NCBI GenBank assembly: GCA_031258505.1
Contig: JAIRMT010000013.1
Span: forward strand, 1-47,969
From: Treponema sp.
GTDB taxonomy: Bacteria > Spirochaetota > Spirochaetia > Treponematales > Breznakiellaceae
Length of the DNA stretch: 47,969 bases
Direction of reading: 5' to 3'
The position numbers and the translations under genes were made by a program. This document shows positions 20,898 to 40,834 of this stretch, piece by piece (position 1 is the first letter of the stretch; every line of letters begins with the position of its first letter). Under the pieces are notes generated by a model. The model was not told where the DNA came from. It saw nothing but the letters and a program-made list of their open reading frames with translations, and made no database searches.

Positions 20898-21248
20898 ATG
20901 GCTTGGCGAGTTGCATTCACGAGCGCCGACGATGTTTATGTGAACCAGCATTTTGGACACGCCCGTTACTTCGTCATCAGGGATATAGAGGCTGATGGTA
21001 CGAGTAGCTTTTTGGAACGACGGGAGATTACACCAGTCTGCGGAAGCGGCGATCACGGCGCTGGGGTGCTAGACGATGTGATCGAGAGCCTGCACGATTG
21101 TATCGCGGTACTTACCGCAAAGATTGGTCCCGCACCCCGCAAACGGTTGGAATTGGCGGGTATCACGGTTTTCGAGGAACCAGCTATCATTGAGGAGGCG
21201 GCGAGGAAACTGGCGGCTTACTATAGCCGGACAAAGCGAGAGGAGTAG
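20898..21248 (+). CDS. NifX/NifB-C-terminal-domain family protein (Fe-S/FeMo-cofactor-binding family)
   Basis: 116 aa. It shows the family signature VNQHFGHARYFVIRDIE at the N-terminus and the small alpha/beta size typical of NifX/NafY/NifB-C domains. Confidence 0.75.
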   Translation: MAWRVAFTSADDVYVNQHFGHARYFVIRDIEADGTSSFLERREITPVCGSGDHGAGVLDDVIESLHDCIAVLTAKIGPAPRKRLELAGITVFEEPAIIEEAARKLAAYYSRTKREE

Positions 21249-21745
21249 CCATTAAAACGGTGGTTCAGCGACCACAACCAGACCCTGAGCTTATCGAAGG
21301 GGCAGTCGTTTCAAGTGGCTCAAGAATTTCTTATAAAAAACCTTAAAATCCATTGACACTCTATGTTTTACAAGATATATTCTTAGTAAATCAGTGGGTA
21401 TTATAAATAAAGGAGTTTTTATGTCGGAACTAAGCATAAGCGCCGCGCCAAAGGGCCTAAGCGTTGACAAAGACTTGACGCTGTCTATCCATTTTGACTG
21501 GCGCACTTTGATCCCACTCGCCTCGGTCGCTTTTACGCAGGTACTTCGGTATACCGCGTTGCCAGTGGCATCAGCATACCGTACCAAGGTTTCGCCATGG
21601 TTCATCTGGTTCAACATCGCTGCCGGAGTACTGGTAATACTTGCGGTTCGGGAGCGCTTCACGTATAAATCGTGGTTTCTGGGGGTAGCGTTTTTTCTGC
21701 TCAACTTGTATAACCTCATCACCGTAAAGTTCGGCCTGATTCCCA
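21176..21745 (+). repeat. Copy A of a dispersed direct repeat (NifX-like 3' end, operator, promoter, SD and permease 5' end)
   Basis: It aligns by eye with 28121-28545 (copy B) and, from 21311 on, with 40377-40834 (copy C). Confidence 0.85.
21321..21381 (+). promoter_or_regulatory. Imperfect 24-bp AT-rich palindrome plus sigma70-like promoter (copy A)
   Basis: CAAGAATTTCTTATAAAAAACCTT at 21321-21344. TTGACA at 21353-21358, a 17-nt spacer, and TATATT at 21376-21381. Confidence 0.55.
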
Positions 21746-21780
21746 TACAGCAGAGGGCAGATTGGTCTGCCGTTATTTGA
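21421..21780 (+). pseudogene. 5' fragment of the NitT/TauT-type permease gene (about the first 108 codons of 40486..41502, then a divergent tail). The ORF is still open.
   Basis: MSELSISAAPKGLSVDKD... parallels MSELSISTASNGLSVGKD... of the full-length gene. Homology ends near 21745 and the stop is at 21778-21780. Confidence 0.7.
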
Positions 21781-21794
21781 ATTAAGAGGAGAAT

Positions 21795-22940
21795 ATGACG
21801 AAAAAGACAAATCGGGACCCGATTAGAGTTCAGCCGGGACCTGCCAACTACTATTCTTATCCTGGTGCCCTGGAGGAACTGGGACGGCTCTACCCGGGAA
21901 AAAACATGGAAAGGGCATTCCTACTGTACGGAAAGCGGGCTTTGGCGGGGGCCGCACCCTATCTGCCTCTAGCCGTCAGCCGGCTGGTGGGTTCCCGAGG
22001 CTTCCTCTTTGGAGGTGAGGACAGGCGCTTTAATACCGGCAGGCCGTTTAATACGACCCACTGTAGCCATGAGCTGGTGGACGCCCTATCCACCAGTCTG
22101 GGACCAGACGGGGTAAGCGTAATCATCGGGTTGGGGGGCGGTTCGGTACTGGATACGGCAAAGTCCCTAGCGGTAAAGCTCGATCTTCCCTTTGTGGCGA
22201 TTCCTACCATAGCGGCCACCTGCGCTGCGGCCACTCCCCTTTCGGTGTGGTACAGCCTGGAGGGTAAGGCCCTGGGCTTCGAGGTCTTTAACCGGGCTGT
22301 TGACGCAGTACTTGTTGAGCCCCGAATCATCCTTGATGCCCCCGCTGAGTATCTCAAAGCGGGGATCGCCGACACTTTGGCCAAGTGGTACGAAGCTTCG
22401 ATACTTACCGCAGGAGGCGAGGGCCTGCCACTGAGCGCCCGGCTGGGCCTCGATGTATCGGCCACCCTGAAGGATGTGCTGCTGGAAAAGGGGAAAGCCG
22501 CAAAAACCGCCCTGCAAACCCGTACCCTAAGCCCGGAATTTATCGAGGTAGTAGACACTGTCATCATTGGCGGGAGTCTCGTGGGCGGTCTGGGGGAAAG
22601 GTACACCCGGGTTGCGGCTGCCCATGCCCTCCACAACGGTATTTCCGTATTAAGCGAAACCCATCATCTGCTCCACGGCATCAAGGTGGCATACGGCCTG
22701 CTTGTGCAGGCGGCTCTGATGGAAGACGGTTCCCTTGACGAGCTGATTCCCAAATTCCGGGAACTGGAACTGCCCCTCAGCCTGCGGGATCTGGGCATCG
22801 ATCCTGAGGACAAAGAAAAACTGCGGCGTTTTATCGACGCGAGTCTTGTTCCGTCAGAATCAATACACTATCTTCCCTTTCCCGTAGACCATGAGCGTCT
22901 CCTCCGGGCGATTGAGGCTGTAGAAAACCTGAGCTGTTAA
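21795..22940 (+). CDS. Iron-containing alcohol dehydrogenase / glycerol-dehydrogenase-family oxidoreductase
   Basis: 381 aa with the nucleotide-binding motif IGLGGGSVLDTAKSLA and a histidine-rich metal site (HALHNG...HLLHG). Confidence 0.8.
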   Translation: MTKKTNRDPIRVQPGPANYYSYPGALEELGRLYPGKNMERAFLLYGKRALAGAAPYLPLAVSRLVGSRGFLFGGEDRRFNTGRPFNTTHCSHELVDALSTSLGPDGVSVIIGLGGGSVLDTAKSLAVKLDLPFVAIPTIAATCAAATPLSVWYSLEGKALGFEVFNRAVDAVLVEPRIILDAPAEYLKAGIADTLAKWYEASILTAGGEGLPLSARLGLDVSATLKDVLLEKGKAAKTALQTRTLSPEFIEVVDTVIIGGSLVGGLGERYTRVAAAHALHNGISVLSETHHLLHGIKVAYGLLVQAALMEDGSLDELIPKFRELELPLSLRDLGIDPEDKEKLRRFIDASLVPSESIHYLPFPVDHERLLRAIEAVENLSC

Positions 22941-23071
22941 AATCCCCGATTGGAGTTTTACCGTAAAAACCGGGAACGTTGTTTCCGATTTAGCCGGAGT
23001 TGATTCGCTACGAAGGATTCCGGCTTATAAAATCACGAGTGTACGGCGGGAGTCGTACAAAGGAGTTTGTT

Positions 23072-23899
23072 ATGAAAAAAAGCGTGTTTATTCTGTTGGC
23101 GATTTTCGCGGCCTGCGTCGGCGCTTACGCGGGAGGTACACGGCAGAGCAGCGGGCAGACGGTGGTAAAGATCGGCCTTATGGGTGAGGAACTGCGTCCC
23201 GCGTGGAACGAGGCGAGCCGGTTGCTGGAGAAGGACAACATCAAGATTGAACTGGTTAATTTCAGCGATTACGCGGTTCCCAACCGGGCATTGGCTGATG
23301 GGGACATCGATCTCAATTCGTTTCAGCACGACGCGTTTTTGCAGAACGAAATCGCGAACCAGAAATACGAAATTACCGCCATCGGCAACACGGTTATCTT
23401 TTTTCTGGGGGTATACTCCAAGAAGATCAAGAATCTTGATGAACTTAAAGACGGCGATACTGTGGTGATTATGAACGACGCCACAAACGGAGGCCGGGCG
23501 CTAAAGGTGCTTGAGGCGGCCGGGGTCTTCTCGCTGGACCCTTCCAAGGGTAATACGCCTACGCCGCAGGACATCGTATCCAATCCCAAAAATATCAAGA
23601 TTGTTGAGGTTGACGCGTCCCAGACTTGGCGTACCCTTGACGATCCGGTAGTAGCGGCGGCAGTGGTAAACTCCAACTTTGTGGTAGATGGCGGCGGAGT
23701 GCCTGCCCAGGATGCCATATTCATCAAACCTATTGATCAAGTTGGCGACAAGCCTTACATTAACCTTGTAGCCGCCCGTATCAAAGACAAGGACAATCCA
23801 GTCTACAGAAAAGTGGTTGCTGCTTTCCAGACGCCGGAGGTTTCCCGGGTAATAACCGACGAAGCGCCCCTTAAGGGGACAGCCCTGCCAGCCTGGTAA
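23072..23899 (+). CDS. metQ: Methionine ABC transporter substrate-binding lipoprotein (NlpA/MetQ family)
   Basis: Start at 23072 (MKKSVFILLAIFAACVG) with AAGGAG SD. It has a lipobox-like FAAC and NlpA-family motifs (DIDLNSFQH, NDATNGGRAL). Confidence 0.88.
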   Translation: MKKSVFILLAIFAACVGAYAGGTRQSSGQTVVKIGLMGEELRPAWNEASRLLEKDNIKIELVNFSDYAVPNRALADGDIDLNSFQHDAFLQNEIANQKYEITAIGNTVIFFLGVYSKKIKNLDELKDGDTVVIMNDATNGGRALKVLEAAGVFSLDPSKGNTPTPQDIVSNPKNIKIVEVDASQTWRTLDDPVVAAAVVNSNFVVDGGGVPAQDAIFIKPIDQVGDKPYINLVAARIKDKDNPVYRKVVAAFQTPEVSRVITDEAPLKGTALPAW

Positions 23900-23907
23900 A
23901 TAAGAAA

Positions 23908-23989
23908 TTAACCACGAAGGCAAAAAGTCCAAGAAGGAAGGAAACCCAAAGATTTCATCCTTTTTTACCTTCTGCGCCTTTGTGGTTAA
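23908..23989 (+). terminator. Long structured element or possible terminator after metQ
   Basis: TTAACCACGAAGGC (23908-23921) pairs with GCCTTTGTGGTTAA (23976-23989), with one G-U pair. It encloses a 54-nt loop and is followed by AAAAAATTCTTTATT. Confidence 0.3.
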
Positions 23990-24078
23990 AAAATTCTTTA
24001 TTCCGTGTCCTGTAAATCAGTGTTTACAAGGTACGAGACCCCACTGTGAATGAAATATGAAACTTGTACGGAGGAGTT

Positions 24079-25128
24079 ATGAGATTAGCTGATGAACTGC
24101 GGACGGCAGCCGAAGAATACCGGGCGTGGATAAAAAAATTTCTTGACATCGGTACGGAGATTGTGTACCTGTCCCAGGACCACGTGAAAAGCATACCGGT
24201 AACGCCCCATGAAATACGATCCCTGGTGGAAAAAGCCCTTGTTGCGTACAGCGCGAAACAGGTAGACATGCCGCCGAAGATCGCCCTGCATCCGATTAAG
24301 GATACGTTTTTTCACGCGATGCCCGCCTATGTGCCCAGCGAATTCGCCGCAGGCCTTAAATGGGGTTCCTGTTATCCTGAAAACCTTAAAACCTACGGCT
24401 ATCCTCAGGCCCAGGGGCTTATCATCTATAACGATCATCTTTCGGGAATGCCTCTGGCCGTTATGGACTGCAAGTACGTTACCGAAATCCGTACTGCCGC
24501 CGTTACCTACACGGCGGCCAAATACCTTGCCTCCAAAGAAACCGAAACCGCGGGAATGATCGGCTGCGGCGTTGAGGGAAGGCAGCATGTCAAAAACCTC
24601 GAAACCGTTCTGCCCAACTTAAAAAAAATCTACGTGTACGATATTGTTGAAAAAGCGGCCGACGCGTTGATAGCAGATCTGCAGCCCTCCGTTAAAGCGG
24701 CGATTGTCAAGGCTTCCGGCTATGAAGAACTGGTAAAAAATTCCGGGGTGATTATATCGGCAACCGTCGCTGCGGAAGGCTACAACCCTGTTATCAAAGA
24801 TCAATGGATCGGCAAGGGAAAAACAATCCTCCTCTGCGAAGGACACACATTGTACGAAGACGCCGTTTACAAGCGCGCCGACAAGTACGTCGTAGACAGC
24901 CGCGAACAGGTTGAACAGTTTGTTCAGTACGGATTCTATCCGTTCGGGCATCCTGAAATTTACGCGGAAACGGGAGAAATAGCAGCTGGAAACGCCAAAG
25001 GCAGGGAACGTCCCGATGAGCTTATCGTGGGCAATAACTTCGGAATGGCCGTCGAAGATATGTTCGTCGTCAGGGCTTTGTTTGACCGCGCCCTTGAAAA
25101 GAACATCGGCGTAAGGCTGCCGCTTTAA
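24079..25128 (+). CDS. Ornithine cyclodeaminase / mu-crystallin family NAD(P)-dependent enzyme
   Basis: Start at 24079 with GGAGG SD. It has a Rossmann motif (MIGCGVEGRQH) and a family-typical length of about 350 aa. Confidence 0.75.
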   Translation: MRLADELRTAAEEYRAWIKKFLDIGTEIVYLSQDHVKSIPVTPHEIRSLVEKALVAYSAKQVDMPPKIALHPIKDTFFHAMPAYVPSEFAAGLKWGSCYPENLKTYGYPQAQGLIIYNDHLSGMPLAVMDCKYVTEIRTAAVTYTAAKYLASKETETAGMIGCGVEGRQHVKNLETVLPNLKKIYVYDIVEKAADALIADLQPSVKAAIVKASGYEELVKNSGVIISATVAAEGYNPVIKDQWIGKGKTILLCEGHTLYEDAVYKRADKYVVDSREQVEQFVQYGFYPFGHPEIYAETGEIAAGNAKGRERPDELIVGNNFGMAVEDMFVVRALFDRALEKNIGVRLPL

Positions 25129-25132
25129 CCTT

Positions 25133-26212
25133 ATGATTGAACTAAAAAACATCACAAAAACTTTTCGGGGAAAAGGTTCGTTTGAAAACCGTCTCCACGA
25201 TATACACGCCGTGCGGAATGTAAGCCTTTCCGTCGGGGAGGGAGACATCTTCGGGGTTATCGGCTTTTCCGGGGCGGGAAAGAGTACCCTTGTGCGCTGT
25301 ATCAACCTGCTGGAACGACCCGATGAGGGCGAGGTTATCATAAACGGTGAAGACCTGATGAAGCTTTCCCGAAATGATCTCCGCCTTACCCGCAAAAAGA
25401 TTGGCATGGTATTCCAGCATTTCAACCTTTTCCGCTCCCGCACCGTGGCTGGAAACATCGCCTTTCCCATCAAGTATGACTGGCAGCCGGACGGGACCGC
25501 CGGGCGCCGCGCCTCGCGTCCAGCGGTCGAGAAGCGGGTAACTGAATTGCTTGACATGGTTGGACTTGTGGAAAAAACCAACGCCTACCCTTCCCAGCTT
25601 TCCGGGGGCCAGAAACAGCGAGTCGGCATTGCCCGGGCTTTGGCGTCCAACCCCTCAATCCTGCTCTGCGACGAGGCAACCAGCGCCCTTGACCCCCAGA
25701 CAGCCCAGTCCATCCTCGCCCTGCTCAAGGAACTCAACAGAAAGCTGGGCATTACTATTGTTATCATCACCCATGAGATGCAAGTGATAAAGTCTATCTG
25801 CGGTCATGCCGCAGTCATGGATTCGGGGGAAATTGTGGAGCAGGGTTCGGTATTCGACATTTTTTCCAATCCCCAAAAACAGATCACCCGGGATTTTACC
25901 GCTACTACTTCGCATCTGAACAAGATTAACGATCTACTTGCCGAAGATACGCCCCTCACCCGGCTTAGGTCGAATCAGATACTTGCCCGCTTCAGCTATT
26001 CAGGGCCAAACACGGTGGACGCGCTGATCTCCACCGCTTCGCTGCGCTTCAACGTAAAGCTGAACATCATCTTCGGAGACCTGGACATTATCCAGGAAAA
26101 GCCAATCGGGGGGCTTATCGTTATTCTTGAAGGAGAGAAAGATGCTCTGGAAAAAACCATGGAGTGGTTCCGTGGCAAAGGTGTTCTGGTGGAGGTACTG
26201 AAACATGGTTGA
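25133..26212 (+). CDS. metN: Methionine ABC transporter ATP-binding protein with C-terminal NIL domain
   Basis: Walker A GFSGAGKST, signature LSGGQKQR and Walker B ILLCDEATSALD are present. The C-terminal extension of about 100 aa is typical of MetN. Confidence 0.9.
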   Translation: MIELKNITKTFRGKGSFENRLHDIHAVRNVSLSVGEGDIFGVIGFSGAGKSTLVRCINLLERPDEGEVIINGEDLMKLSRNDLRLTRKKIGMVFQHFNLFRSRTVAGNIAFPIKYDWQPDGTAGRRASRPAVEKRVTELLDMVGLVEKTNAYPSQLSGGQKQRVGIARALASNPSILLCDEATSALDPQTAQSILALLKELNRKLGITIVIITHEMQVIKSICGHAAVMDSGEIVEQGSVFDIFSNPQKQITRDFTATTSHLNKINDLLAEDTPLTRLRSNQILARFSYSGPNTVDALISTASLRFNVKLNIIFGDLDIIQEKPIGGLIVILEGEKDALEKTMEWFRGKGVLVEVLKHG

Positions 26213-26885
26213 ATTACTAAAAATCCTTATGCCGAATGTAATGGAACGGCTTCCAGAACTCTGGACGAGCCTGGTCCAGAGTCTTTACCTGATCGTTTTT
26301 GTCGGAATCGTCTCATTTGTTTTTGGAATTTTTTTCGCGGTAGTGCTGACGGTAAGCAAAAAAGGCGGCCTTATGGAAAATATTCCTCTCTGGACTGTGC
26401 TGGACAAGCTGATAAACTTTTTCCGTTCCGTACCTTTCATCATCCTTATCGCCCTGCTTATTCCCCTGACGCGGGTCATAGCCGGAACCGCTATCGGGGT
26501 AAAAGGCGCCATTCCACCCCTGATATTTGGAACCGCGCCCTTTTTCAGCCGCCAACTGGAAAACGCCCTGGCTGAGGTGGATTCAGGATCAGTGGAGGCG
26601 GCTTCTTCCATGGGCATCAGCAACGTGGGGATCATCTTCCGGGTCTACCTTAAGGAAAGCATTCCCGGCATCATCCGGGGGATCACCATCACCCTGATAA
26701 GCCTTATCGGGCTTACCGCCATGGCTGGCGCAGTAGGCGGCGGAGGACTGGGAGATTTTGCCATACGCTACGGTTATCAGCGCTACCAGACCGACATCAC
26801 CATCGTAACTGTGATCATACTCATACTCCTAGTGTCGCTGATACAGGCGGCTGGGAATTATTTTGCCAAAAAAACAAGTCACTAG
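26205..26885 (+). CDS. metI: Methionine ABC transporter permease
   Basis: 226 aa, polytopic. It overlaps the metN end by 8 nt. Confidence 0.88.
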   Translation: MVELLKILMPNVMERLPELWTSLVQSLYLIVFVGIVSFVFGIFFAVVLTVSKKGGLMENIPLWTVLDKLINFFRSVPFIILIALLIPLTRVIAGTAIGVKGAIPPLIFGTAPFFSRQLENALAEVDSGSVEAASSMGISNVGIIFRVYLKESIPGIIRGITITLISLIGLTAMAGAVGGGGLGDFAIRYGYQRYQTDITIVTVIILILLVSLIQAAGNYFAKKTSH

Positions 26886-26921
26886 CATTGCTGCTAAACT
26901 TGATTAAGGGAGTTAAAGAAC

Positions 26922-28112
26922 ATGCCTGAAACAAGCCTCCGTACCGCCGGATTCGGTGAATCGGTAATACGTCGTATGACCCGCGTTGCCTTGGAACACG
27001 GGGCTATCAACCTTTCCCAGGGCTTCCCGGATTTCGATCCCCCGTCAGAGCTTACCCGCGCCCTGGCCGAAACAGCGACAAAGGGGCCGCACCAGTACGC
27101 CATAACCTGGGGCGCGCCGAATTTCCGCCGAGCATTGGCGGAAAAGCAGCAGCGCTACATGGGTATACCCATTGACCCGGAAAAGAACATCACTGTTACT
27201 TGCGGTTCCACAGAGGCGATGATGGCTGCCATGATGAGTGTGGCAAACCCCGGCGACAAGGTTATCGTGTTTTCCCCGTTTTATGAAAACTACGGCGCTG
27301 ACGCTATACTCTCTGGCGCGCAGCCGATCTACGTGCCTCTCCTCCCGCCTGATTTCGGTTTTGACCGGGACCTTCTGCGTAGGGCATTCGCGGAGCGTCC
27401 CAAGGCGCTGATCCTCTGCAACCCTTCCAACCCCAGCGGCAAGGTGTTCAGCCGGCCGGAGCTTGAGTACATCGCGGCACTGGCGGAAGAATTTGACACA
27501 TGGGTTATTACCGACGAGGTCTACGAACATATCGTGTACGCTGATGGGGCAGGCGGTTCCCCGGGACAGCATATCTACTTTGCCTCCCTGCCGGGCATGG
27601 CGGAGCGAACCATAAGCTGTTCCTCCCTTTCCAAGACCTACTCCATAACCGGCTGGCGCTTGGGCTACACTATCGCCAGCGAAAAAGCCACCGACATTAT
27701 CCGTAAAGTCCATGATTTTCTTACCGTTGGAGCTGCAGCCATCCTCATGGAAGCGGCGCTTACCGCCTTGCGTTTTCCGCAGAGTTACTACGATGGGCTT
27801 TTAGCCTCCTACACCAGTAAACGGAAGCTCTTCCTGGACGCACTAGACCGGGCGGGTCTCCGCTACACCCGTCCCCAGGGGGCCTACTATGTGCTGGTGG
27901 ACATCAGCGAGTTTTGCGGTAACGACGATACCCGTTTCTGCGAATGGTTGGCAAAAGAGGTAAAGGTCGCGGCGGTTCCGGGTTCCAGCTTCTTCCATGA
28001 ACCGGTAAACCATCTAATCCGTTTCCACTTCGCCAAGAAAGACGAGACCCTCATCGCTGCAGGAGAGCGGCTTGCCGGACTGCGGGACGCCTGGGCAAAG
28101 CGGGGGTATTAG
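26922..28112 (+). CDS. Class I PLP aminotransferase (YbdL / kynurenine-glutamine transaminase-like, possible methionine/2-oxoacid transaminase)
   Basis: 396 aa with N-terminal INLSQGFPDFDPP and the PLP lysine motif SLSKTYSITGWRLGY. Confidence 0.82.
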   Translation: MPETSLRTAGFGESVIRRMTRVALEHGAINLSQGFPDFDPPSELTRALAETATKGPHQYAITWGAPNFRRALAEKQQRYMGIPIDPEKNITVTCGSTEAMMAAMMSVANPGDKVIVFSPFYENYGADAILSGAQPIYVPLLPPDFGFDRDLLRRAFAERPKALILCNPSNPSGKVFSRPELEYIAALAEEFDTWVITDEVYEHIVYADGAGGSPGQHIYFASLPGMAERTISCSSLSKTYSITGWRLGYTIASEKATDIIRKVHDFLTVGAAAILMEAALTALRFPQSYYDGLLASYTSKRKLFLDALDRAGLRYTRPQGAYYVLVDISEFCGNDDTRFCEWLAKEVKVAAVPGSSFFHEPVNHLIRFHFAKKDETLIAAGERLAGLRDAWAKRGY

Positions 28113-28193: not shown

Positions 28194-28257
28194 TCATTAA
28201 ACGGTGGTTCAGCAACTGGAACCTGAGCTTGCCGAAGGGTCAGTCGTTTCAAGCGGC

Positions 28258-28318: not shown

Positions 28319-28357
28319 CTTAGTAAATCAGTGGGTATTATAAGCGAAGGAGCTTTT

Positions 28358-32951: not shown

Positions 32952-33881
32952 ATGAATATGCTTGATTTAATCGGGAATACCCCGCTGGTTGAACTTAAAA
33001 AAATCTCCGCTGAACTTAATGGCGTGTCGATACATGCTAAGGCGGAGTTCCGCAATCCTTCTGGTTCCGTCAAGGATCGGGCGGCAAAAGCCATGCTCCT
33101 TGACGGCATTGAATCCGGCAAACTATGTCCCGGAAAGACCATCATCGACGCCTCAAGCGGCAACACGGGTATTGCCTACGCCATTTTAGGAGCAATCTTG
33201 GGCTATCCAGTAAGAATATATCTTCCGGCAAACGCCAGTTGGGAACGAAAAGCCTTCATCGCCTGCTGTGGAACAGCCGTTGTGGAGACCAATGCCCTGG
33301 AAAGCTCCGATGGCGCGTATCTGGCCGCAAAAGCCGAAGCGGAATCCCAAGCAGATAAATACTTCTGGCCTGACCAGTACAACAACGATGCTAACTGGAA
33401 AGCCCACTACCATACCACTGGTGTTGAAATATGGGAACAGACAGAGGGCAAAATTACTCACTTTATTACTGGCATGGGTACATCAGGAACATTCATGGGA
33501 ACTTCTCGAAGGCTCAAGGAGTACAACAAAAGCATTGAGGCTGTGGCAGTACAGCCTGATTCGCCCTTCCACGGCATTGAAGGAACAAAGCACATGGCCA
33601 GTTCCATTAAACCGGGATTTTACGATGAAACATTCCCCGACCGTTTTGTCATGGTCAATACTGAGGCGGCCTATGCCATGACTCGCAGACTTGTCCGTGA
33701 TGAAGGTCTTTTCGTGGGAATCAGTTCCGGCGCAAACGTGCAGGCTGCCCTTGACCTGGGGCGCACCTTGCCCCCAGGTTCGCTCATTGTTACCATGTTA
33801 TGCGATTCGGGCTTCCGCTATCTTTCGGATGCGTTCTGGAACATACCAGTTGAACTCAAAGGTCATGGAGAAGGAATATGA
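32952..33881 (+). CDS. cysM: CysM-type cysteine synthase (probably sulfur-carrier-protein dependent)
   Basis: 309 aa with NPSGSVKDR and SSGNTG. It is translationally coupled (ATGA) to the JAMM-CysO gene and followed by moeZ, as in the mycobacterial CysM/CysO/Mec/MoeZ system. Confidence 0.85.
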   Translation: MNMLDLIGNTPLVELKKISAELNGVSIHAKAEFRNPSGSVKDRAAKAMLLDGIESGKLCPGKTIIDASSGNTGIAYAILGAILGYPVRIYLPANASWERKAFIACCGTAVVETNALESSDGAYLAAKAEAESQADKYFWPDQYNNDANWKAHYHTTGVEIWEQTEGKITHFITGMGTSGTFMGTSRRLKEYNKSIEAVAVQPDSPFHGIEGTKHMASSIKPGFYDETFPDRFVMVNTEAAYAMTRRLVRDEGLFVGISSGANVQAALDLGRTLPPGSLIVTMLCDSGFRYLSDAFWNIPVELKGHGEGI

Positions 33882-34579
33882 TTCAGTTGTCCGCTCAATG
33901 TTTAGACGCAATCCGTACAGAAGGTGAAAAGGCGTACCCGAATGAGTGCTGCGGCGCTTTGTTAGGCGTAATTTTTGATGATGACAAGCGCCTAGTTCAA
34001 AGCATCTTTCCCATTACCAATGCCCGCGAGCAAACGGAACAGTACCATCGCTTTGAAATAGAACCGGAAGATTTGCTGCGGGCTGAAAAAGAGGCAAGGT
34101 CGCAAAATAGGGACGTGCTTGGATTTTACCATTCCCACCCGGATCATCCGGCGCGTCCCTCAGAATACGACCGGAACAACGCCTTTCCATTTTATTCGTA
34201 TCTGATTGTATCGGTTGAGAAAAAGAAGGCGGCGGCTCTGACAAGCTGGCGGCTTTCCGACGACCGGAAAGAAATTTTTGAAGAAGTAGTTAAGGAGGAA
34301 ACTATGGCGGTAATCATTCAAATCCCGACAGCCCTGCGGGGTTTTACGGAACGGAAACATGAAGTTGAGGTTGAAGGCCAGACCGTAGGTGAGGCAATCA
34401 ATGCCCTTGCCGGAAAGTACCCGGACTTGCGGCAGCATCTTTATCAAGGTGAAAATTTGCGTTCGTTTATCAACGTGTTTGTAGGCGATACCAACATTAA
34501 GAAACTTGAAGGGCTTGATACAAAACTGTCAGGTAACGAAACAGTCATGCTGGTTCCAGCAATCGCTGGCGGCGCCTAA
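33878..34579 (+). CDS. In-frame fusion of a JAMM/MPN+ metalloprotease (Mec-like) and a ThiS/MoaD-type sulfur carrier (CysO-like)
   Basis: The N-terminal 142 aa carry ECCGALLG and HSHPDHPARPSEYD (the JAMM motif). The C-terminal 91 aa form a beta-grasp-sized domain ending AIAGGA. No stop codon lies between the domains. Confidence 0.85.
   Translation: MIQLSAQCLDAIRTEGEKAYPNECCGALLGVIFDDDKRLVQSIFPITNAREQTEQYHRFEIEPEDLLRAEKEARSQNRDVLGFYHSHPDHPARPSEYDRNNAFPFYSYLIVSVEKKKAAALTSWRLSDDRKEIFEEVVKEETMAVIIQIPTALRGFTERKHEVEVEGQTVGEAINALAGKYPDLRQHLYQGENLRSFINVFVGDTNIKKLEGLDTKLSGNETVMLVPAIAGGA
34304..34579 (+). CDS. cysO: Possible independently translated CysO-like sulfur carrier (internal start)
   Basis: The ATG at 34304 is in frame and preceded by AAGGAGG at 34292-34298 (5-nt spacing). 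The product MAVIIQIP...VPAIAGGA is 91 aa. Confidence 0.5.
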   Translation: MAVIIQIPTALRGFTERKHEVEVEGQTVGEAINALAGKYPDLRQHLYQGENLRSFINVFVGDTNIKKLEGLDTKLSGNETVMLVPAIAGGA

Positions 34580-34580
34580 C

Positions 34581-35762
34581 ATGAACTCTATTATAGAAGA
34601 AAGCCGCCTCATTAGTCTCACCAACGAGGAGATTGCCCGCTACAGCCGCCATCTTCTCTTGCTAGAAGTCGGCATTGAGGGACAGAAACGGCTCAAGGCG
34701 GCGAAGGTCTTGCTTGTGGGAACTGGCGGCCTCGGCGCTCCACTTGCGCTTTACCTTGCCGCCAGTGGCGTGGGGACTATCGGCATCGTGGACTTTGACT
34801 TTGTGGAGGAATCAAACCTTCAGCGACAGGTGATCCATTCCACACGGGATGTGGGTCGTCCTAAAGTCGCGTCAGCGCAGGAGCGCATCAAGGGCATAAA
34901 TCCAAAGTGCAATGTGATAACGTATAACACTATGCTCAACAGCGGCAACGCCCTTGACATCATCAAAGAATACGACATTGTTGCTGACGGTACTGACAAT
35001 TACCAGACCCGCTACCTTGTGAACGATGCCTGCGTGTTATTGGGAAAGCCCAATGTGTATGGCTCGGTATTTCAATTTGAAGGGCAGGTTTCGGTTTTCT
35101 TCGCCAAAGAAGGACCTTGCTACCGCTGCCTGTACCCGGAACCGCCGCCGCCGGGACTCGTACCCTCCTGCGCCGAAGGCGGCGTTGTCGGGGTATTGCC
35201 CGGCATCATCGGCTGTATTCAGGCAAACGAAGTAATCAAACTCATTACCGGTTTCCGGGAAGAGGATGGCGCAAGCCTTATCGGGCGGCTGCTTCTTTTT
35301 GACGCATGGAAAATGAAGTTTCGGGAACTCGTTCTGGACAAAGAAAGCGCCTGCCCTATCTGCGGCGCAAACCCCACAATCCATGAGTTGATTGATTACG
35401 AGCAATTCTGCGGCCTTAAAAAAAGCGATGAGGCGGAACCCATAGAAACCATCAGCGCAACAGAACTGAAATCCCGGCTGGATGCGGGCGTTCCAGTACA
35501 AATCATCGACATCCGGGAACCTCACGAGCGGGCAATCGCAAAGTTTCCCAACGCAAAGTCAATCCCTCTGGGGCAGATGACCCGCCGCATTGACGAGTTT
35601 GACCCAGCGATTGACTCGGTATTCATCTGTAAAATTGGACAGCGGAGTGTTTTCGCCATTCACGCCTTACGCGAGGCTGGCTACAAGGGCCGGCTGCTCA
35701 ACTTGAAAGACGGTGTGAACGGCTGGGCGCGGGAAGTGGACAGGCTGCTGCCTGTTTATTAA
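34581..35762 (+). CDS. moeZ: MoeZ/MoeB-like E1 adenylyltransferase with C-terminal rhodanese domain
   Basis: Start at 34581, 1 nt after the CysO stop. It has the nucleotide loop VGTGGLGAP, CxxC pairs (CYRC, CPIC) and a rhodanese active-site loop (CKIGQRS). Confidence 0.88.
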   Translation: MNSIIEESRLISLTNEEIARYSRHLLLLEVGIEGQKRLKAAKVLLVGTGGLGAPLALYLAASGVGTIGIVDFDFVEESNLQRQVIHSTRDVGRPKVASAQERIKGINPKCNVITYNTMLNSGNALDIIKEYDIVADGTDNYQTRYLVNDACVLLGKPNVYGSVFQFEGQVSVFFAKEGPCYRCLYPEPPPPGLVPSCAEGGVVGVLPGIIGCIQANEVIKLITGFREEDGASLIGRLLLFDAWKMKFRELVLDKESACPICGANPTIHELIDYEQFCGLKKSDEAEPIETISATELKSRLDAGVPVQIIDIREPHERAIAKFPNAKSIPLGQMTRRIDEFDPAIDSVFICKIGQRSVFAIHALREAGYKGRLLNLKDGVNGWAREVDRLLPVY

Positions 35763-35780
35763 ATAGAAAGGAGAATGATT

Positions 35781-36734
35781 ATGGCAGAAAAGACAATCAA
35801 CGCATTGGGACGGAGCGCGGCATATCAGCTTGCGAATGTTACAAAAACACCGCCCCAGTTTGGCTCCCTTACCCCTAAATGGCTTACAAGGGTACTGGAA
35901 TTCAAAGGACTTGAAGCGGGTATTTACCGGGTTAATCGGGTCGCTGAGGGCGAAACGCCTCTTGACGTTCTGTGCAGCCAGGACCCGAAAAAAGTTGAGA
36001 TTCCCCAGGGCTTCGTGGATTACGTTTCAAAACCGCGGGAGTATCAACTCAGCTCAATATCCACGATTATCAATGTGGACACTAAAGTTTCAGATGTCTA
36101 CAGTTCGCCGTATGACCAGACTCAGGAACAGATAAAGCTGGCAGTTGAAAGCCTCAAGGAGCGGCAGGAGAGTCAAATCATCAACAGCGATGATTACGGC
36201 CTCCTCAAAAACGCCGTGGACAGTCAGCGTATACAAACCCGCTACGGCCGCCCCATGCCCGACGACTTGGATGAACTCATCACCAAAGTATGGAAAGAGC
36301 CGAGTTTCTTCCTGGCTCATCCTCGCGCTATCGCCGCCTTTGAGCGGGAATGCACCCGTCGGGGCGTCCCGCCGGTAACGGTAACTATTGCCGGAGGAAT
36401 TTTTATCGCGTGGCGGGGCATTCCTCTTATTCCCACGGACAAGCTCTTTGTGGACGGCCTCAAGAACCCCAAAGCCAAAACCGGCAAGACCAATATCCTG
36501 TTAGTCCGTACCGGTGAAGCCAAACGCGGTGTTGTGGGCCTCTACCAGGCTGGCGTTCCGGGCGAACAGAGTCGCGGTCTTTCGGTGCGTTTTCGGGGCA
36601 TTGACGATAATGGCGTTGCCTCGTACCTCCTCTCGGTGTACTGCTCCGCAGCCATTCTCGCTGATGATGCTGTGGCCGTGCTGGAAGACGTGGAGGTAGG
36701 AGATTACTATGAATATACCCAACAGCCGGTTTAG
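35781..36734 (+). CDS. Family 2A encapsulin shell protein (SrpI-like, HK97-fold nanocompartment)
   Basis: Recalled SrpI-family motifs are present: GIYRVNRV, PREYQLSSIST, KVSDVYSSPYDQ, KVWKEPSFFLAHPRAIAAFERECTRRGVPP, WRGIPLIPTDK and ILLVRTGEAKRGVVGLYQ. The ATG at 35781 has AAGGAG 7 nt upstream. Confidence 0.8.
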   Translation: MAEKTINALGRSAAYQLANVTKTPPQFGSLTPKWLTRVLEFKGLEAGIYRVNRVAEGETPLDVLCSQDPKKVEIPQGFVDYVSKPREYQLSSISTIINVDTKVSDVYSSPYDQTQEQIKLAVESLKERQESQIINSDDYGLLKNAVDSQRIQTRYGRPMPDDLDELITKVWKEPSFFLAHPRAIAAFERECTRRGVPPVTVTIAGGIFIAWRGIPLIPTDKLFVDGLKNPKAKTGKTNILLVRTGEAKRGVVGLYQAGVPGEQSRGLSVRFRGIDDNGVASYLLSVYCSAAILADDAVAVLEDVEVGDYYEYTQQPV

Positions 36735-38184
36735 TTTTTCAGAGTGGGGCTTGCCGTCTGCGGCAGAGATAGCCGCGTTAGCCGCGAACTATTTCCCTGA
36801 ATTCGGCAATGCGCCCGCAGGCAGGTCCCCGCAGCCAGTGTCAGAGGTCATTTCGCCTAACGCCTATTCGCCGGTTGTGCTTCCCAAAGAAAAAAAGCTG
36901 GAGCATAGCGGTTCCGCAGCGCGTCAAGCCAGCGGCGCCAGACTCTACGCCAAAACACAGGGCGTTTCAGTCGGTCATCGTTCCCTTGATTCCATACGCG
37001 CTGATTTCCCCATTCTTGCGGAAAAGGTATCAGGCGGCCATGACCTGGTGTGGTTTGATAACGCGGCTACTACCCAGCGACCCAGGCAGGTAATTGAGCG
37101 CCTGTCCTATTATTATGAACACGAGAATTCCAATGTCCATCGAGGAGCGCATGAACTGGCGGCACGTTCTACCAACGCCTACGAGGAAGCCAGGGCGAAG
37201 ATTGCCTGCTTTTTAGGCGCGCCCTCGCCGGACAATATTGTGTATGTACGGGGAACTACTGAAGGGATAAATCTTGTGGCACAGGCTTATGTCAAACCGC
37301 TGCTCAAAGCTGGGGACGAGATAATTCTTACCATGCTGGAACACCACGCCAACATTGTCCCCTGGCAGCTTATCGCCGCTGAAACTGGAGCGGTTCTGCG
37401 GGTTGCGCCGATTGACCAAAGCGGCCAGCTCATTCTTTCGGAGTACGAAAAACTCTTTAACAGCCGCACCCGCTTTGCCGCAGTAACCCATGTGTCAAAC
37501 GCTTTAGGCACGATTGCGCCAGTGGAGGAACTGGTACACATCGCTCATGCCCGCGGAGTGCGAATCCTCATTGACGGGGCGCAGTCTGTGTCGCATATTC
37601 CGGTGAATGTCGCGGCTCTGGACACTGATTTTTTCGTGTTTTCGGGGCATAAGATTTTCGGGCCAACAGGTATAGGGGCGCTTTATGGTAAAAGCGATGT
37701 TCTGGAAGCAGCCCAGCCATACCAAGGTGGAGGTAACATGATTTTCGATGTTACCTTTGAGCGTACCCTCTATCACAAGCCGCCCGCGAAATTTGAGGCA
37801 GGTACTGGCAGCATTGCGGACGCGGTGGGTCTGGGCGCGGCGCTGGACTATGTTTCGGAGATTGGCATACAGAATATCGCTGCATGGGAACACGAACTCC
37901 TGCAATACGGCATGAAAGAACTTGCGAAGATTCCCGGCCTGCGTCTCATTGGAACAGCCGCTGAAAAGGCGAGCGTCCTCTCCTTCGTGCTTGAAGGACA
38001 CAGCCTTGAGGAAGTAGGTAAACATCTCTCAAGTCGGGGAATCGCCGTCCGCGCCGGGCATCACTGCGCCCAGCCAGTACACCGATTCTTTGGCCTTGAA
38101 GGAACCGTTCGCCCCTCTGTTGCCTTGTACAACACGTTGGGCGAGATTGACAAGCTTGTAACGGCAGTAGGAGAGCTGGTATGA
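36709..38184 (+). CDS. Cysteine desulfurase (SufS/CsdA-like) with N-terminal disordered cargo-loading extension
   Basis: The catalytic domain starts around residue 95 (FPILAEK...VWFDNAATTQRP) and includes HHANIVPW and SGHKIFGPTGIGALYG. The Pro/Ala/Ser-rich N-terminal ~90 aa contain AEIAALAANYFPEF. AGGAG SD. Confidence 0.88.
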   Translation: MNIPNSRFSFSEWGLPSAAEIAALAANYFPEFGNAPAGRSPQPVSEVISPNAYSPVVLPKEKKLEHSGSAARQASGARLYAKTQGVSVGHRSLDSIRADFPILAEKVSGGHDLVWFDNAATTQRPRQVIERLSYYYEHENSNVHRGAHELAARSTNAYEEARAKIACFLGAPSPDNIVYVRGTTEGINLVAQAYVKPLLKAGDEIILTMLEHHANIVPWQLIAAETGAVLRVAPIDQSGQLILSEYEKLFNSRTRFAAVTHVSNALGTIAPVEELVHIAHARGVRILIDGAQSVSHIPVNVAALDTDFFVFSGHKIFGPTGIGALYGKSDVLEAAQPYQGGGNMIFDVTFERTLYHKPPAKFEAGTGSIADAVGLGAALDYVSEIGIQNIAAWEHELLQYGMKELAKIPGLRLIGTAAEKASVLSFVLEGHSLEEVGKHLSSRGIAVRAGHHCAQPVHRFFGLEGTVRPSVALYNTLGEIDKLVTAVGELV

Positions 38185-39395
38185 AGCAAAAAAAATTATG
38201 TGCCGACCGTATCGGCGATCAGACGCTGTCAATTCACGCCGGTGAATTTCCCGATCCGCTTACCGGCGCTTCCGCGCCAAACCTGGTCATGTCCACTACC
38301 TTTGTGGTAGAGGCTGACACAGGATTTTCCGTCGAGGGTATGGGTGAAAACGATCCCTTTGTGTATACCAGGTGGGGCAACCCTACCATCAGACAGCTTG
38401 AGGAAAAACTCACTGCCTTGGAGGGTTCGGAGACTGCTGTGGCCTTTGCAAGTGGCATGGCTGCTGCCACTGCCCTGCTGCTGCATACACTCAAAGCTGG
38501 GGACCACGCGGTGGTGAGCGATGTTACCTACGCCGCAGTGTCGGAGGCTGCCAATGAACTGTTTCCGGGTTTGGGGTTTCAGATTAGTAAAGTTGATACT
38601 TCAGATTTAGACGCACTGCGTGAGGCGGTGCGGCCTAATACCCGGCTCATTTATATCGAAACCCCCTGTAACCCGCTCTTGCGCTTGACGGATATTGCGG
38701 CTGCCGCTGATATAGCGCATAAGGCAAATGCCCTTCTTGCGGTGGATTCAACTTTTGCCACCCCCGCTGGAACTAAACCGCTTGCGTTGGGGGCGGACTT
38801 CGTTATCCATTCCCTAACCAAGTATCTAGGCGGCCACGGCGACGCGCTGGGCGGCGCGATTCTGGGGAGAGCCGCAGACCTTGCGCCGCTTCGCAAAAAA
38901 ACCGCAGTCCGTCTGGGTGGAACCCTAAGCCCCTTTAATGCCTGGCTGATTCTCCGGGGGCTTGCCACTTTTCCCCTACGCATGAAGGCTCACGAGGAAA
39001 ACGCGCTCAAGGTAGCCGCATTTCTTGAAAGCCATCCAAAAGTGGTAAAACTGATCTACCCTGGCCTACCGTCTCACCCCCAGCATGAACTCGCCCAGCG
39101 GCAGATGAAGAATTTTTCCGGCATGGTAACCTTTCAAACAGAAAAAGGCAAAGAAACCGCCATTGCCCTGGCGAAAAAGCTGAAGATAATCCATTACGCA
39201 GTTTCCCTGGGTCATCACCGCTCGTTGATTTTTTATCTTAACAGCGAAGAGCTTTTAAAAACCTCGTTCAGGCTTGATACCCCAAAGCAGCTTGAATCGT
39301 GGAAAGCATTTGCTGGTGAGGGGATTTTTCGTCTTTCTGTGGGGCTGGAAAACGCGGAAGACATAATCGCCGATTTAGAACAAGCAATCGGCTGA
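38181..39395 (+). CDS. Cys/Met-metabolism PLP enzyme (cystathionine gamma-lyase/synthase, methionine gamma-lyase or O-acyl-homoserine sulfhydrylase family)
   Basis: 404 aa with YTRWGNPT, AVDSTFATP and the PLP lysine in HSLTKYLGGHGD. ATGA overlap with the desulfurase gene. Confidence 0.85.
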   Translation: MKQKKLCADRIGDQTLSIHAGEFPDPLTGASAPNLVMSTTFVVEADTGFSVEGMGENDPFVYTRWGNPTIRQLEEKLTALEGSETAVAFASGMAAATALLLHTLKAGDHAVVSDVTYAAVSEAANELFPGLGFQISKVDTSDLDALREAVRPNTRLIYIETPCNPLLRLTDIAAAADIAHKANALLAVDSTFATPAGTKPLALGADFVIHSLTKYLGGHGDALGGAILGRAADLAPLRKKTAVRLGGTLSPFNAWLILRGLATFPLRMKAHEENALKVAAFLESHPKVVKLIYPGLPSHPQHELAQRQMKNFSGMVTFQTEKGKETAIALAKKLKIIHYAVSLGHHRSLIFYLNSEELLKTSFRLDTPKQLESWKAFAGEGIFRLSVGLENAEDIIADLEQAIG

Positions 39396-39404
39396 GGAGT
39401 AACT

Positions 39405-40373
39405 ATGCAACACGAAACCAATACAAAAGTAAAACATCTGGTTGACATACTGTCACGGAGTTACCGGGATCATGCGGAAATTATAAAAGTCGATGCGGAA
39501 AATCAGCTTAACCGGAGTGTCATCATTGATATTCTTGAGCGGCTGCGCAAACTTATTTTTCCCGGCTATTTTGGCAAGAAACATCTTTCCGCTGACTTGA
39601 TAGAATATTACGCTGGAGATTTGCTTGAAGAAGTTATCCATGATCTCACCCCGGAGCTGGCTAAAGCACTGTGTCATCTTGATGACACGGCAGTTTCCCC
39701 GGCGGAAAAGGCAAGCAGCGGTTTATTTTTTCAAGAACAGGCCAGTGATATTGCCTTTACGTTTTTGTCAAGATTGCCGGAAATCCGGGAATATCTTGTC
39801 TCCGATGTTTCCGCCGCCTTTGACGGCGACCCTGCGGCGTTCAGCAAAGATGAAATAATCTCGTCCTATCCGGGAATATACGCTATCATGGTCTACCGTC
39901 TGGCACATGCGCTATACGAACTTGATGTCCCGCTCATTCCCCGAATTATGACCGAACATGCGCATAGCGTTACTGGCATCGACATTCACCCCGGCGCGGT
40001 AATCGGACATCATTTCTTCATTGACCACGGAACCGGAATTGTCATTGGAGAGACAACGATCATCGGTAACCATGTAAAAATATACCAGGGCGTAACTCTG
40101 GGCGGGCTTTCCACCAGAGGCGGTCAGGCTCTTAAAGGAACTAAACGCCATCCCACCATTGAAGATCATGTAACGATCTATTCAGGCGCTTCCATATTCG
40201 GCGGCGCTACGATTATCGGTGAGGGAGTTGTAATCGGCAGCAGCGCCTTTATCACCAAGTCGGTACCGGAAAAAACTAGGGTTAGCGTGAAAAATCTGGA
40301 AATGCAGTACAAGGTAGACCAGAGCGCCCGCGCCGAGCTTGTCCAGGACGGCTTTTGGGATTGGGTGATATAG
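39405..40373 (+). CDS. cysE: Serine O-acetyltransferase (long form)
   Basis: Hexapeptide-repeat core GIDIHPGAVIGHHFFIDHGTGIVIGETTIIGNHVKIYQGVTLGG. GAGGAG SD. Confidence 0.88.
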   Translation: MQHETNTKVKHLVDILSRSYRDHAEIIKVDAENQLNRSVIIDILERLRKLIFPGYFGKKHLSADLIEYYAGDLLEEVIHDLTPELAKALCHLDDTAVSPAEKASSGLFFQEQASDIAFTFLSRLPEIREYLVSDVSAAFDGDPAAFSKDEIISSYPGIYAIMVYRLAHALYELDVPLIPRIMTEHAHSVTGIDIHPGAVIGHHFFIDHGTGIVIGETTIIGNHVKIYQGVTLGGLSTRGGQALKGTKRHPTIEDHVTIYSGASIFGGATIIGEGVVIGSSAFITKSVPEKTRVSVKNLEMQYKVDQSARAELVQDGFWDWVI

Positions 40374-40376
40374 AGG

Positions 40377-40834
40377 TCAAGCGATTCAAGGTTTTTTATA
40401 AAAAACCTTGAAACCTATTGACACTTGATGTTTTACAAGATACATTCTTAGTAAATCAGTAGGTATTATAAGCAAAGGAGCTTTTATGTCGGAACTAAGT
40501 ATAAGCACTGCGTCAAATGGCCTAAGCGTTGGCAAAGACTCGGCGCTGTCCATCCATTTTGACTGGCGCACTCTGATCCCACTCGTCTCGGTCGCCTTTA
40601 CCCAGGTACTGCATACCGCGCTGCCAGTAGCGTCAACGTATCGCACCAAGGTTCTACCGTGGTTCACCTGGTTCAACGTCGTTGCTATCGGGGTACTGGC
40701 AATACTCGCGGTGGTGAGTCTCTTTAACAGCCGGTATCGGGAACGGTTCACGTATAAATCATGGTTTCTGGGGGTAGCGTTTCTTCTGCTCAACTTGTAT
40801 AACCTCATCACCGTCAAGTTCGACCTGATTCCCA
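40377..40834 (+). repeat. Copy C of the dispersed direct repeat (the functional copy, continuous with the full-length permease)
   Basis: It aligns with 21311-21745 (copy A) and with copy B from about 28250 to 28545. Confidence 0.85.
40387..40446 (+). promoter_or_regulatory. Perfect 24-bp palindrome plus sigma70-like promoter (copy C)
   Basis: CAAGGTTTTTTATAAAAAACCTTG at 40387-40410. TTGACA at 40418-40423, a 17-nt spacer, and TACATT at 40441-40446. AAGGAG at 40475-40480. Confidence 0.55.

Follow-up and report, generated by a model that had tools for sequence, protein, structure and literature searches.

The contig JAIRMT010000013.1 of Treponema sp. (assembly GCA_031258505.1), a complete metagenomic contig of 47,969 nt called the window here, holds a super-locus for sulfur scavenging whose regulatory head is present in triplicate; it comes from an uncultured, Breznakiellaceae-like Treponema of the termite-gut type. 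The repeated module joins a promoter to the first codons of an ATP-binding cassette (ABC) transporter permease. Its three copies, A, B and C, stand ahead of two multi-gene cassettes and of an intact NitT/TauT-type transporter, respectively. We propose that the truncated form of the module arose once, at a single junction inside the permease gene, and that the three module copies now act as co-regulated, live promoters; this explanation as a whole we hold to be reasonably likely. Some 22 kb of sulfur-scavenging genes would then share one control region through its three copies. Related loci are referred to by L numbers.

The promoter module is repeated three times

Repeat finding, MAFFT and local alignment agree on three co-linear direct repeats that are 87-88% identical (Table 1): 86.7% over 421 nt between A and B (21176-21615 versus 28121-28544), 87.9% over 431 nt between A and C (21311-21745 versus 40377-40834) and 87.4% over 294 nt between B and C. 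A 43-nt pattern covering the promoter and 5' untranslated region (UTR) has three exact matches in the window against none in 100 shuffles. The three repeats reported in the initial annotation of this DNA are thus real.

The module measures about 600 nt. It comprises the last ~100 nt of a NifX-like gene, a spacer, an AT-rich palindrome, the promoter, a 25-bp box, a Shine-Dalgarno (SD) sequence and the first 116 permease codons. Judged from copy B of L003, the original left edge of the repeat unit lies at about 21149; window copy B is short of 27 nt there, between two GGAA motifs. The original right edge lies at least 4 nt (TACA) past the permease break. Copies B and C have palindromes that differ by two symmetric double changes.

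As initially described, only copy C leads into a full-length permease (40486-41502). Copy A retains 108 permease codons in an open reading frame (ORF) of 119 aa, whose stop lies 14 nt 5' of the Fe-ADH-like gene of cassette 1. Copy B is frameshifted (-4 and -1), with its stop (28562-28564) 3 nt ahead of the start, at 28568, of the solute-binding protein (SBP) gene that opens cassette 2, and direct reading of the sequence finds the NifX-like 3' end in this copy with an in-frame TAG. All of these earlier statements are borne out by the coordinates. The left copy is thus continuous with NifX and the right copy with the permease, and the middle copy is artificial at both edges.

A single junction probably underlies the truncated copies

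An uninterrupted target is found in relatives. In L031 and L055 the NifX-like gene is directly followed by promoter and permease; a complete NifB (Radical_SAM plus Nitro_FeMo-Co, the C-terminal domain corresponding to NifX-like) abuts the permease in L018, L028 and L062. The ancestral order that had been suggested, NifX-like gene, promoter, then permease-ATPase-SBP, is seen in L031 and L055.

The truncated copies end at a common junction, CTGATTCCCA followed directly by TACA, in window A, in the A copies of L008, L011 (TGCA) and L094 and in L003 B, five genomes in all. One breakpoint common to these copies indicates that an A-type module, truncated beforehand, was the source of B, which was not captured independently. 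When eleven copies are placed in a tree, those of type C group as a single clade that excludes the truncated ones, and this dates the duplications to before the split of these species.

Flanking direct repeats, continuity of the outer copies with their neighbours and an empty site in relatives are together the marks of duplicative insertion. The earlier proposal of homology-driven (Campbell-type or duplicative) insertion consequently holds for the repeat geometry and the empty sites; its further claim, that each cassette captured its own copy of the promoter, is not supported, since one junction is common. Two separate insertions, each taking promoter and permease 5' end from an intact locus, would also fit the geometry and the empty sites, and a cassette-1-like operon (MetN-MetI-Ldh-aminotransferase) does exist elsewhere, in an unrelated neighbourhood of the more distant relative L093. 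Under such a history, however, an identical breakpoint with the same four following nucleotides would not be expected in so many genomes, and no truncated copy resembles a recent capture from C. We consider separate captures unlikely.

Cassette boundaries as they stand today are partly products of deletion in a locus that descends, as we propose, from that single junction. Window B lost permease codons ~62-116, L003 lost the stretch from SBP2 through the 5' end of u150 (the 150-aa ORF of cassette 2), and window C lost the NifX remnant. This remnant is still present ahead of copy C in L008 and L010 and is also lost in L003; at this place L001 and L011 have different sequences, which in L011 include an insert of ~600 nt containing a tandem array.

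Permease fragments in the truncated copies

Four of the six truncated copies keep the permease fragment in an open frame (window A, L094 A, L003 B and L008 A), and two are frameshifted (window B and L011 A). All indels of window A are in frame (+3, -3 and -24), and L094 has an orthologous 119-aa ORF with the same stop. The ratio of nonsynonymous to synonymous substitution rates (dN/dS) is 0.27-0.55 for truncated copies versus 0.11-0.27, with one value of 0.43, for intact ones; gene conversion can account for part of these low values. The conserved BPD_transp_1 core of the permease starts at residue 156 and is absent from the fragment. A homology search with the 119-aa ORF in a protein database of 5.8 billion sequences returned its own protein and two others, under a limited sampling in which full-length permeases were not recovered.

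These data bear on whether the fragments are functional, as a small two-helix membrane protein or as an upstream ORF providing translational coupling or polarity protection for the cassette. The open frames, indels in multiples of three, a frame in L008 A that stays open across a large internal deletion, dN/dS under the neutral value, stops 3-24 nt ahead of the next start codon and the retention of two hydrophobic segments all speak for such a role. Yet two copies are frameshifted, L008 A has lost ~60 codons, the transporter core is missing, conversion from the selected copy C can depress the apparent dN/dS, and just two other annotated fragment ORFs came out of that very large database. Functional fragments therefore have a low probability in our view; a part in translation or coupling is possible, yet not required.

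Copies A and B appear to be maintained as promoters

We compared five truncated copies at 32 key positions, namely -35, -10, 11 high-information box positions, SD and ATG. Thirty of these are invariant, against 46 of 76 other promoter and UTR positions, 206 of 303 positions in the coding remnants (68%) and 62 of 96 third codon positions (65%; Fisher p 0.0004-0.002 over all comparisons, and about 0.001-0.002 for the coding and third-position ones). The frameshifted copies, window B and L011 A, keep their promoter elements intact. Together this argues for selection on promoter function: A and B appear to be maintained as promoters, and conversion from C may contribute.

Conversion among the copies is documented by the mosaic copy A of L094, which shows 100% identity to L003 B in the 5'UTR, 96-98% to L003 C in the 5' stretch of the coding region and 96-100% to window A in the 3' stretch. 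Between the cassettes, intrinsic terminators were found as weak consensus matches only, at background frequency (32 versus 23.6 +/- 5.1 expected). With no strong terminators there, read-through probably supplements the internal promoters.

Both observations would suit a situation in which A and B are inert scars, kept similar by conversion from C, with the cassettes transcribed by read-through or from other internal promoters. So would the loss of the copy-B promoter in L011 and the lack of copy B in L008/L088, where that promoter is evidently dispensable. Uniform conversion, however, is not expected to produce the element-specific pattern above, nor to leave promoter elements intact beside frameshifted coding remnants. 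We find inert scars rather improbable.

A 25-bp box is the candidate operator

The hexamers of the promoter match the consensus at 11, 11 and 10 of 12 positions in A, B and C (TTGACA, 17 nt, then TATATT in A and B and TACATT in C), rank as top sites of the 20-kb region and place the -10 element 40 nt upstream of the ATG. Hexamers, spacing and distance to SD and ATG all are those of a sigma-70-type promoter, and a like architecture is found upstream of 40 orthologous permeases. When these regions are aligned on -35, TTGACA-17-TAnAnT is conserved, with the box CCTAGTAATTAnATAGGnATTATAA immediately after it, down to ~67% protein identity. The upstream palindrome is limited to the closest clade; elsewhere the same position is merely AT-rich, resembling an UP element.

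A weight matrix derived from 16 diverse boxes finds the three module copies in the window and no other site. In 1.19 Mb of related loci it finds 65 sites, versus 0-2 in reversed or locally shuffled controls. Besides the permease, the genes 3' of the box are cysK-like (7), NifH-like (5), CGL (2), serine acetyltransferase (SAT; 1), an NMT1-type SBP, SBP_bac_3 and an Rrf2 gene, and the orientation of the box agrees with the downstream gene in every case. A box that overlaps the core promoters of several sulfur and cysteine genes in this way is what a regulon would show.

The best-supported candidate operator is accordingly the 25-bp box right after -10, which probably covers the transcription start. 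The initial annotation had given each module an operator; the AT-rich palindrome upstream of -35 is the less likely place for it, being clade-restricted whereas the box is conserved widely and far exceeds its controls. Copy C combines the weaker -10 (TACATT) with a higher box score (27.6 versus 22.0), and one may speculate that A and B are somewhat leakier than C. Rrf2-family genes adjoin the cluster in eight loci, one of Treponema and seven of Firmicutes, and in L041, L080 and L082 the box lies within the intergenic region next to the Rrf2 gene.

Alternatively, the box could act in the RNA, as a leader at the start of the transcript that responds to a protein or a metabolite. It would begin at about +1, always oriented with the gene it precedes, and has a short inverted repeat that might fold into a hairpin. 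It is nevertheless short and overlaps -10; its changes, by inspection and not by a formal test, are wobble-compatible with no clear Watson-Crick covariation; Rrf2 DNA-binding regulators are encoded beside box-bearing promoters; and the whole window has no Rfam match at the gathering threshold, hence no riboswitch, T-box or S-box leader. The leader itself is just ~33 nt. An RNA element is, on balance, distinctly unlikely.

In a metagenome scan the promoter/5'UTR pattern also matched loci L005-L007, which have no homolog of a window gene and fall below the threshold of the box matrix; these matches were treated as chance. Every module further carries a promoter-like site on the minus strand (21400-21427, 28337-28364 and 40465-40492), formed by CCGACA or CTGACA, 16 nt and TATAAT with 10-11 of 12 matches; its sequence comes from the conserved ATTATA of the box together with the surroundings of the start codon. 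This site may be an antisense promoter, or the box may create it by chance.

Contents of the cassettes and their variation in relatives

The gene content of both cassettes is as first annotated, by Pfam, with sizes of 6.4 kb and 11.8 kb. Cassette 1 looks from its genes like a methionine uptake or salvage operon; it is found in L003, L008/L088, L011 and L094, the OCD gene being missing from L008 and L011. In cassette 2, the shell gene (35775-36734; PF19307, 8e-96) is SrpI-like and is adjacent to a cysteine desulfurase gene (36709-38184, 491 aa) whose Aminotran_5 domain starts only at residue 114. This pairing, a SrpI-like shell with a desulfurase carrying an N-terminal extension, identifies a family 2A encapsulin. 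The SBP-permease-ATPase set of cassette 2 was considered as a recent duplicate of the copy-C transporter and ruled out, the two sets being just 22-34% identical.

Two ORFs of cassette 2 are unusual. At 33878-34579 the JAB (Mec-like) and ThiS/CysO-like domains share one 233-aa ORF, which may be either a fusion or the result of a lost stop codon; L001 and L003 have separate adjacent genes of 140 and 92 aa. The 150-aa ORF u150 (32386-32838), between two PALP genes, has zero Pfam or NCBIfam matches; it is 70% conserved in L001 and present as fragments in L003.

Six close relatives carry different deletion derivatives of the cassettes. The window has all 12 cassette-2 genes. L003 is without SBP2 through the 5' part of the 150-aa ORF and has an internally deleted CGL. 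L008/L088 lack OCD and copy B and keep of cassette 2 only a SrpI fragment, CGL and SAT; L011, also without OCD, has only SAT left, fused to a NifX remnant. Two loci are seen in part: L001, which starts inside the ATPase gene, shows ATPase through SAT, and L010, whose contig ends upstream of SrpI, shows SrpI, CyD, CGL and SAT. The gene fragments within the cassettes point to deletion as the dominant process.

The same junctions recur in independent assemblies from other samples (L003, L008/L088, L011 and L094), so the repeat is not an assembly artefact. A misassembly or strain chimera is worth raising for a window that is a whole metagenomic contig, repeats being a classic source of such errors, but with copies that differ by 12-13%, too much to collapse or confuse, it has next to no probability.

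The module might also serve as a homology-based cassette platform, in which any DNA between two module copies loops out as a circle with one module and re-inserts by RecA-dependent single crossover into co-resident Treponema at the NifX-promoter-permease site. Compared gene by gene with each relative, the cassettes and the core have similar identities and give no sign of recent cassette exchange between strains, which counts against such a platform; we see it as a rather doubtful possibility. If true, it would be an integrase-free analogue of the integron, by which gut treponemes trade sulfur-acquisition operons with a sulfur-regulated promoter included.

A different arrangement is found in L041 (Treponema sp. 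Mcx344_bin19), with PALP-JAB-ThiS-ThiF, a divergent Rrf2 with cysK and MetQ, NflD/K-permease-ATPase-SBP and, immediately after these, SrpI, desulfurase and SAT. The encapsulin genes thus joined the transporter independently there, on its downstream side.

Locus and partner genes

The nearest homologs of the window permease are in metagenome-assembled genomes of termite-gut Treponema/Breznakiellaceae; an exact look-up found no identical entry on record. Homologs of the copy-C transporter carry the Joint Genome Institute (JGI) name NitT/TauT. The permease-ATPase-SBP trio is kept in 80 of 80 related loci, where it is linked to cysK-like, NifB-type radical S-adenosylmethionine (SAM), two D/K-like and NifH-like genes. 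In relatives, cysK and the nitrogenase-like genes come directly 3' of the SBP gene, and synteny of this nitrogenase-like/sulfur cluster spans Treponema and Clostridia. NifB-like, NifH-like and NifD/K-like genes clustered with sulfur-assimilation genes are what a sulfur-salvage cluster of Mar/Isr type would show.

NifB is split in the window. Its radical-SAM part (7692-8639) and the NifX-like domain, a separate gene (20898-21248) whose final ~100 nt make up the left part of the repeat unit, lie 12 kb apart. In L018, L028 and L062 both parts belong to one protein of 422-440 aa encoded immediately 5' of the permease.

Tandem arrays, an inversion and other repeats

Two arrays of a 23-nt unit, each unit with the palindrome AGTTCCTnnAGGAACT, are mutually inverted, 84-89% identical and placed at the exact ends of segment 9597-43439. 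This segment (34 kb) is inverted relative to L001, L003, L004, L008/L088 and L011. Bounded by long inverted arrays, its orientation is not fixable by short-read assembly; the difference is either a real inversion via recombination between the arrays or an orientation beyond short-read resolution.

Further arrays, with 21-23-nt (or 42-nt) units and palindromic cores, occur at 32726-32930 in the window, at 11304-12352 and 18302-19001 in L088 and at ~7250-7560 in L011. Their unit sequence differs from place to place, and they always lie at operon or cassette boundaries of the locus. The window array consists of five units in one orientation, then five inverted, and overlaps the 3' end of the 150-aa ORF. 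In L088 a 1-kb array occupies the expected place of copy B and is miscalled as a 508-aa protein. This exemplifies an annotation hazard: permease fragments and tandem arrays are miscalled as genes in public records.

Three more repeats lie near the ends of the window. Positions 116-251 are a 96% direct copy of the NifH-like 3' end (3871-4008), a second gene end duplicated around an insertion; genes for a methyl-accepting chemotaxis protein (293-2485) and an alpha/beta hydrolase (2652-3704) stand between the two copies. Positions 1-119, within which the contig terminates, repeat 10525-10643 in inverted form at 94% identity. Near the right end, 47840-47921 is a perfect tandem of the 7-nt unit CTCCCGG in 11.7 copies.

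Table 1 Features of the window (coordinates on the forward strand)
Feature	Position	Strand	Description
Copy A	21149-21749	+	Founding junction 21745/21746 (TACA)
Copy A, NifX-like 3' end	to 21248		
Copy A, spacer	21249-21321		
Copy A, AT-rich palindrome	21322-21344		AAGAATTTCTTATAAAAAACCTT
Copy A, -35	21353-21358		TTGACA
Copy A, -10	21376-21381		TATATT, 17-nt spacer
Copy A, box	21382-21406		CTTAGTAAATCAGTGGGTATTATAA
Copy A, SD	21410-21415		AAGGAG
Copy A, ATG	21421		
Fragment ORF, 119 aa	21421-21780	+	108 permease codons and 11 new; stop 14 nt before next gene
Cassette 1, 6.4 kb	21795-28112	+	Fe-ADH-like, MetQ, OCD/mu-crystallin, MetN, MetI, class I/II aminotransferase (Pfam)
Copy B	28121-28544	+	NifX 3' remnant with premature TAG; permease fragment frameshifted, cut at ~codon 62
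Copy B, palindrome	28258-28283		Perfect, 26 bp
Copy B, -35	28290-28295		
Copy B, -10	28313-28318		
Copy B, box	28319-28343		
Copy B, ATG	28358		
Cassette 2, 11.8 kb	28568-40373	+	12 ORFs (Pfam)
Cassette 2, first half			NMT1-type SBP, permease, ATPase, CysK-like PALP, 150-aa ORF, second PALP
Cassette 2, second half			JAB-ThiS, ThiF-rhodanese, SrpI family-2A encapsulin shell, cysteine desulfurase with N-terminal extension, Cys/Met pyridoxal phosphate (PLP) enzyme, hexapeptide protein (serine acetyltransferase-like)
Copy C	40377-40834	+	Runs into intact permease
Copy C, palindrome	40385-40412		Perfect, 28 bp
Copy C, -35	40418-40423		
Copy C, -10	40441-40446		TACATT
Copy C, box	40447-40471		
Copy C, ATG	40486		
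NitT/TauT-type ABC transporter, intact	40486-43380	+	Permease 40486-41502, ATPase 41475-42305, NMT1 SBP 42355-43380 (Pfam)
NifX-like gene	20898-21248	+	Stand-alone NifB C-terminal domain; Pfam Nitro_FeMo-Co 7e-21; NCBIfam NifB C-terminal region, positions 331-438
Core partner genes	3872-9583	-	NCBIfam and synteny in L001, L003, L004, L008, L011 and others
cysK	8636-9583	-	NCBIfam cysK 447 bits
NifB-type radical SAM	7692-8639	-	NCBIfam nifB radical-SAM part 1e-76
Two nitrogenase D/K-like subunits	6330-7685, 4758-6317	-	Far below NCBIfam nitrogenase cut-offs
NifH-like	3872-4750	-	NCBIfam nifH 397.8 bits
Tandem array	9636-10460		~34 units of 23 nt
Inverted copy of the 23-nt array	43443-43773		~14 units

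Discussion

We now propose a history and a mode of action for this locus. In the ancestor, the NifB/NifX-like gene would have been followed by the promoter and permease-ATPase-SBP, then by cysK, the NifB-type radical-SAM gene and the nitrogenase-like genes. One illegitimate event may have fused permease codon 116 to foreign DNA (junction CCCA/TACA). The truncated module would then have spread by unequal crossing-over or by Campbell-type re-integration of an excised circle, giving the order NifX, module, cassette 1, module, cassette 2, module, permease, before lineage-specific deletions and patchy gene conversion set in.

Each copy is predicted to be a live sigma-70-type promoter, with transcription from ~33 nt 5' of the ATG. 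The box would be bound by a dimeric repressor, most likely a CymR/IscR-like member of the Rrf2 family, which would block initiation when sulfur or cysteine is sufficient and be released under limitation. The three transcription units, and the nitrogenase-like genes with them, would answer the same signal. At about -46 to -68, the AT-rich palindrome may work like an UP element or as an activator site specific to this clade. The permease fragments would mainly be relics, the open ones probably being translated and ending just before the next gene.

Several points weigh against this explanation. We infer promoter activity and co-regulation from sequence conservation, part of which, for A and B, could stem from gene conversion from C. 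The order of events allows for either unequal crossing-over or circle re-integration, and either cassette may have come first. The adjoining Rrf2 proteins pass rrf2_super and Pfam Rrf2 and fall below the CymR and IscR equivalog cut-offs; an Rrf2 gene is found neither in the window nor in the loci, as distinct from whole genomes, of its closest relatives. The putative likeness of the box to the CymR box of Firmicutes is a lead and no more. Its constant orientation and would-be 5'UTR position leave room for an RNA-level element. Finally, the view of the fragments as mere relics does not fully account for their dN/dS or for indels that are all in frame in four of six copies.

The locus shares with Campbell-type integration and unequal crossing-over the direct repeats of one homology region flanking the cassettes, the inner copy artificial at both edges, the empty site in relatives and later deletion and conversion between repeats. 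Unlike in Campbell-type integration, no vector, integrase or plasmid remnant is present at the locus. The repeat here is moreover a complete, putatively regulated promoter, so that each event would make a new transcription unit, and three copies have been kept at 87% identity beyond the timescale of species divergence. Integron arrays likewise line up a variable set of cassettes behind a promoter at a single site, with contents that differ between close strains. The present cassettes differ from them in being multi-gene operons, each with its own promoter copy, and in their homology-based recombination. No gene called in 19.2-43.4 kb hits an integrase family, u378 and u150 being without any family assignment. 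The cassette boundaries are promoter-module copies, and nothing resembling attC was recognised there, although no formal attC search was run.

Operators of the CymR/IscR type in Firmicutes and Proteobacteria are comparable in that a box of ~25 bp overlaps the core promoter of cysK, sulfonate or cystine transporter and Cys/Met enzyme genes, and in that Rrf2 genes are encoded next to the regulated clusters, here in related loci. CymR, with CysK, represses under cysteine sufficiency (PMC2940859, PMC3828012). Our case departs from these in its spirochaete host, in Rrf2 proteins that stay under the equivalog cut-offs and in a window devoid of a regulator gene.

The loci of MarBHDK methylthio-alkane reductase and IsrBHDK isethionate reductase also place NifB/H/D/K-like genes by a NitT/TauT transporter, cysK, serine acetyltransferase and desulfurase. 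A neighbourhood of 26-36 kb is co-induced in R. capsulatus and R. rubrum when sulfur is limiting (PMC13474568; bioRxiv 10.64898/2026.08.20.746119). Co-regulation by a repeated promoter module is not known from those proteobacterial cases, and the likeness to the window is one of gene families and context.

A family 2A encapsulin (SrpI) with cysteine desulfurase cargo reportedly forms a sulfur-starvation-induced system in Synechococcus elongatus. The window has the same succession of shell gene and desulfurase with an N-terminal extension of ~113 residues, near genes for a rhodanese-domain protein and a serine acetyltransferase-like protein, in a putatively sulfur-responsive setting. Here, in contrast, the pair sits inside a larger cassette with a CysO/ThiS-ThiF-JAB cysteine pathway, behind a duplicated transporter promoter.

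The process at work is ordinary bacterial genome evolution, by duplicative insertion, promoter capture, deletion and conversion, and all components come from known families. What is new is the particular arrangement, its single-junction history and a predicted regulon box for these uncultured spirochaetes. We see in it a clear, though not unprecedented, case of duplication and recombination assembling a gene block that would be co-regulated. Copies of one control region have come to precede the genes for methionine uptake, for a CysO-type cysteine pathway, for a desulfurase encapsulin and for a sulfonate-type transporter together with its nitrogenase-like partner. The locus would thus be a well-resolved natural example of a regulon that grows by copying a whole regulated promoter instead of evolving new binding sites. 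The candidate sulfur-regulon box, with its probable Rrf2 regulator, lends itself to predicting which genes of uncultured termite-gut treponemes and related Clostridia respond to sulfur.

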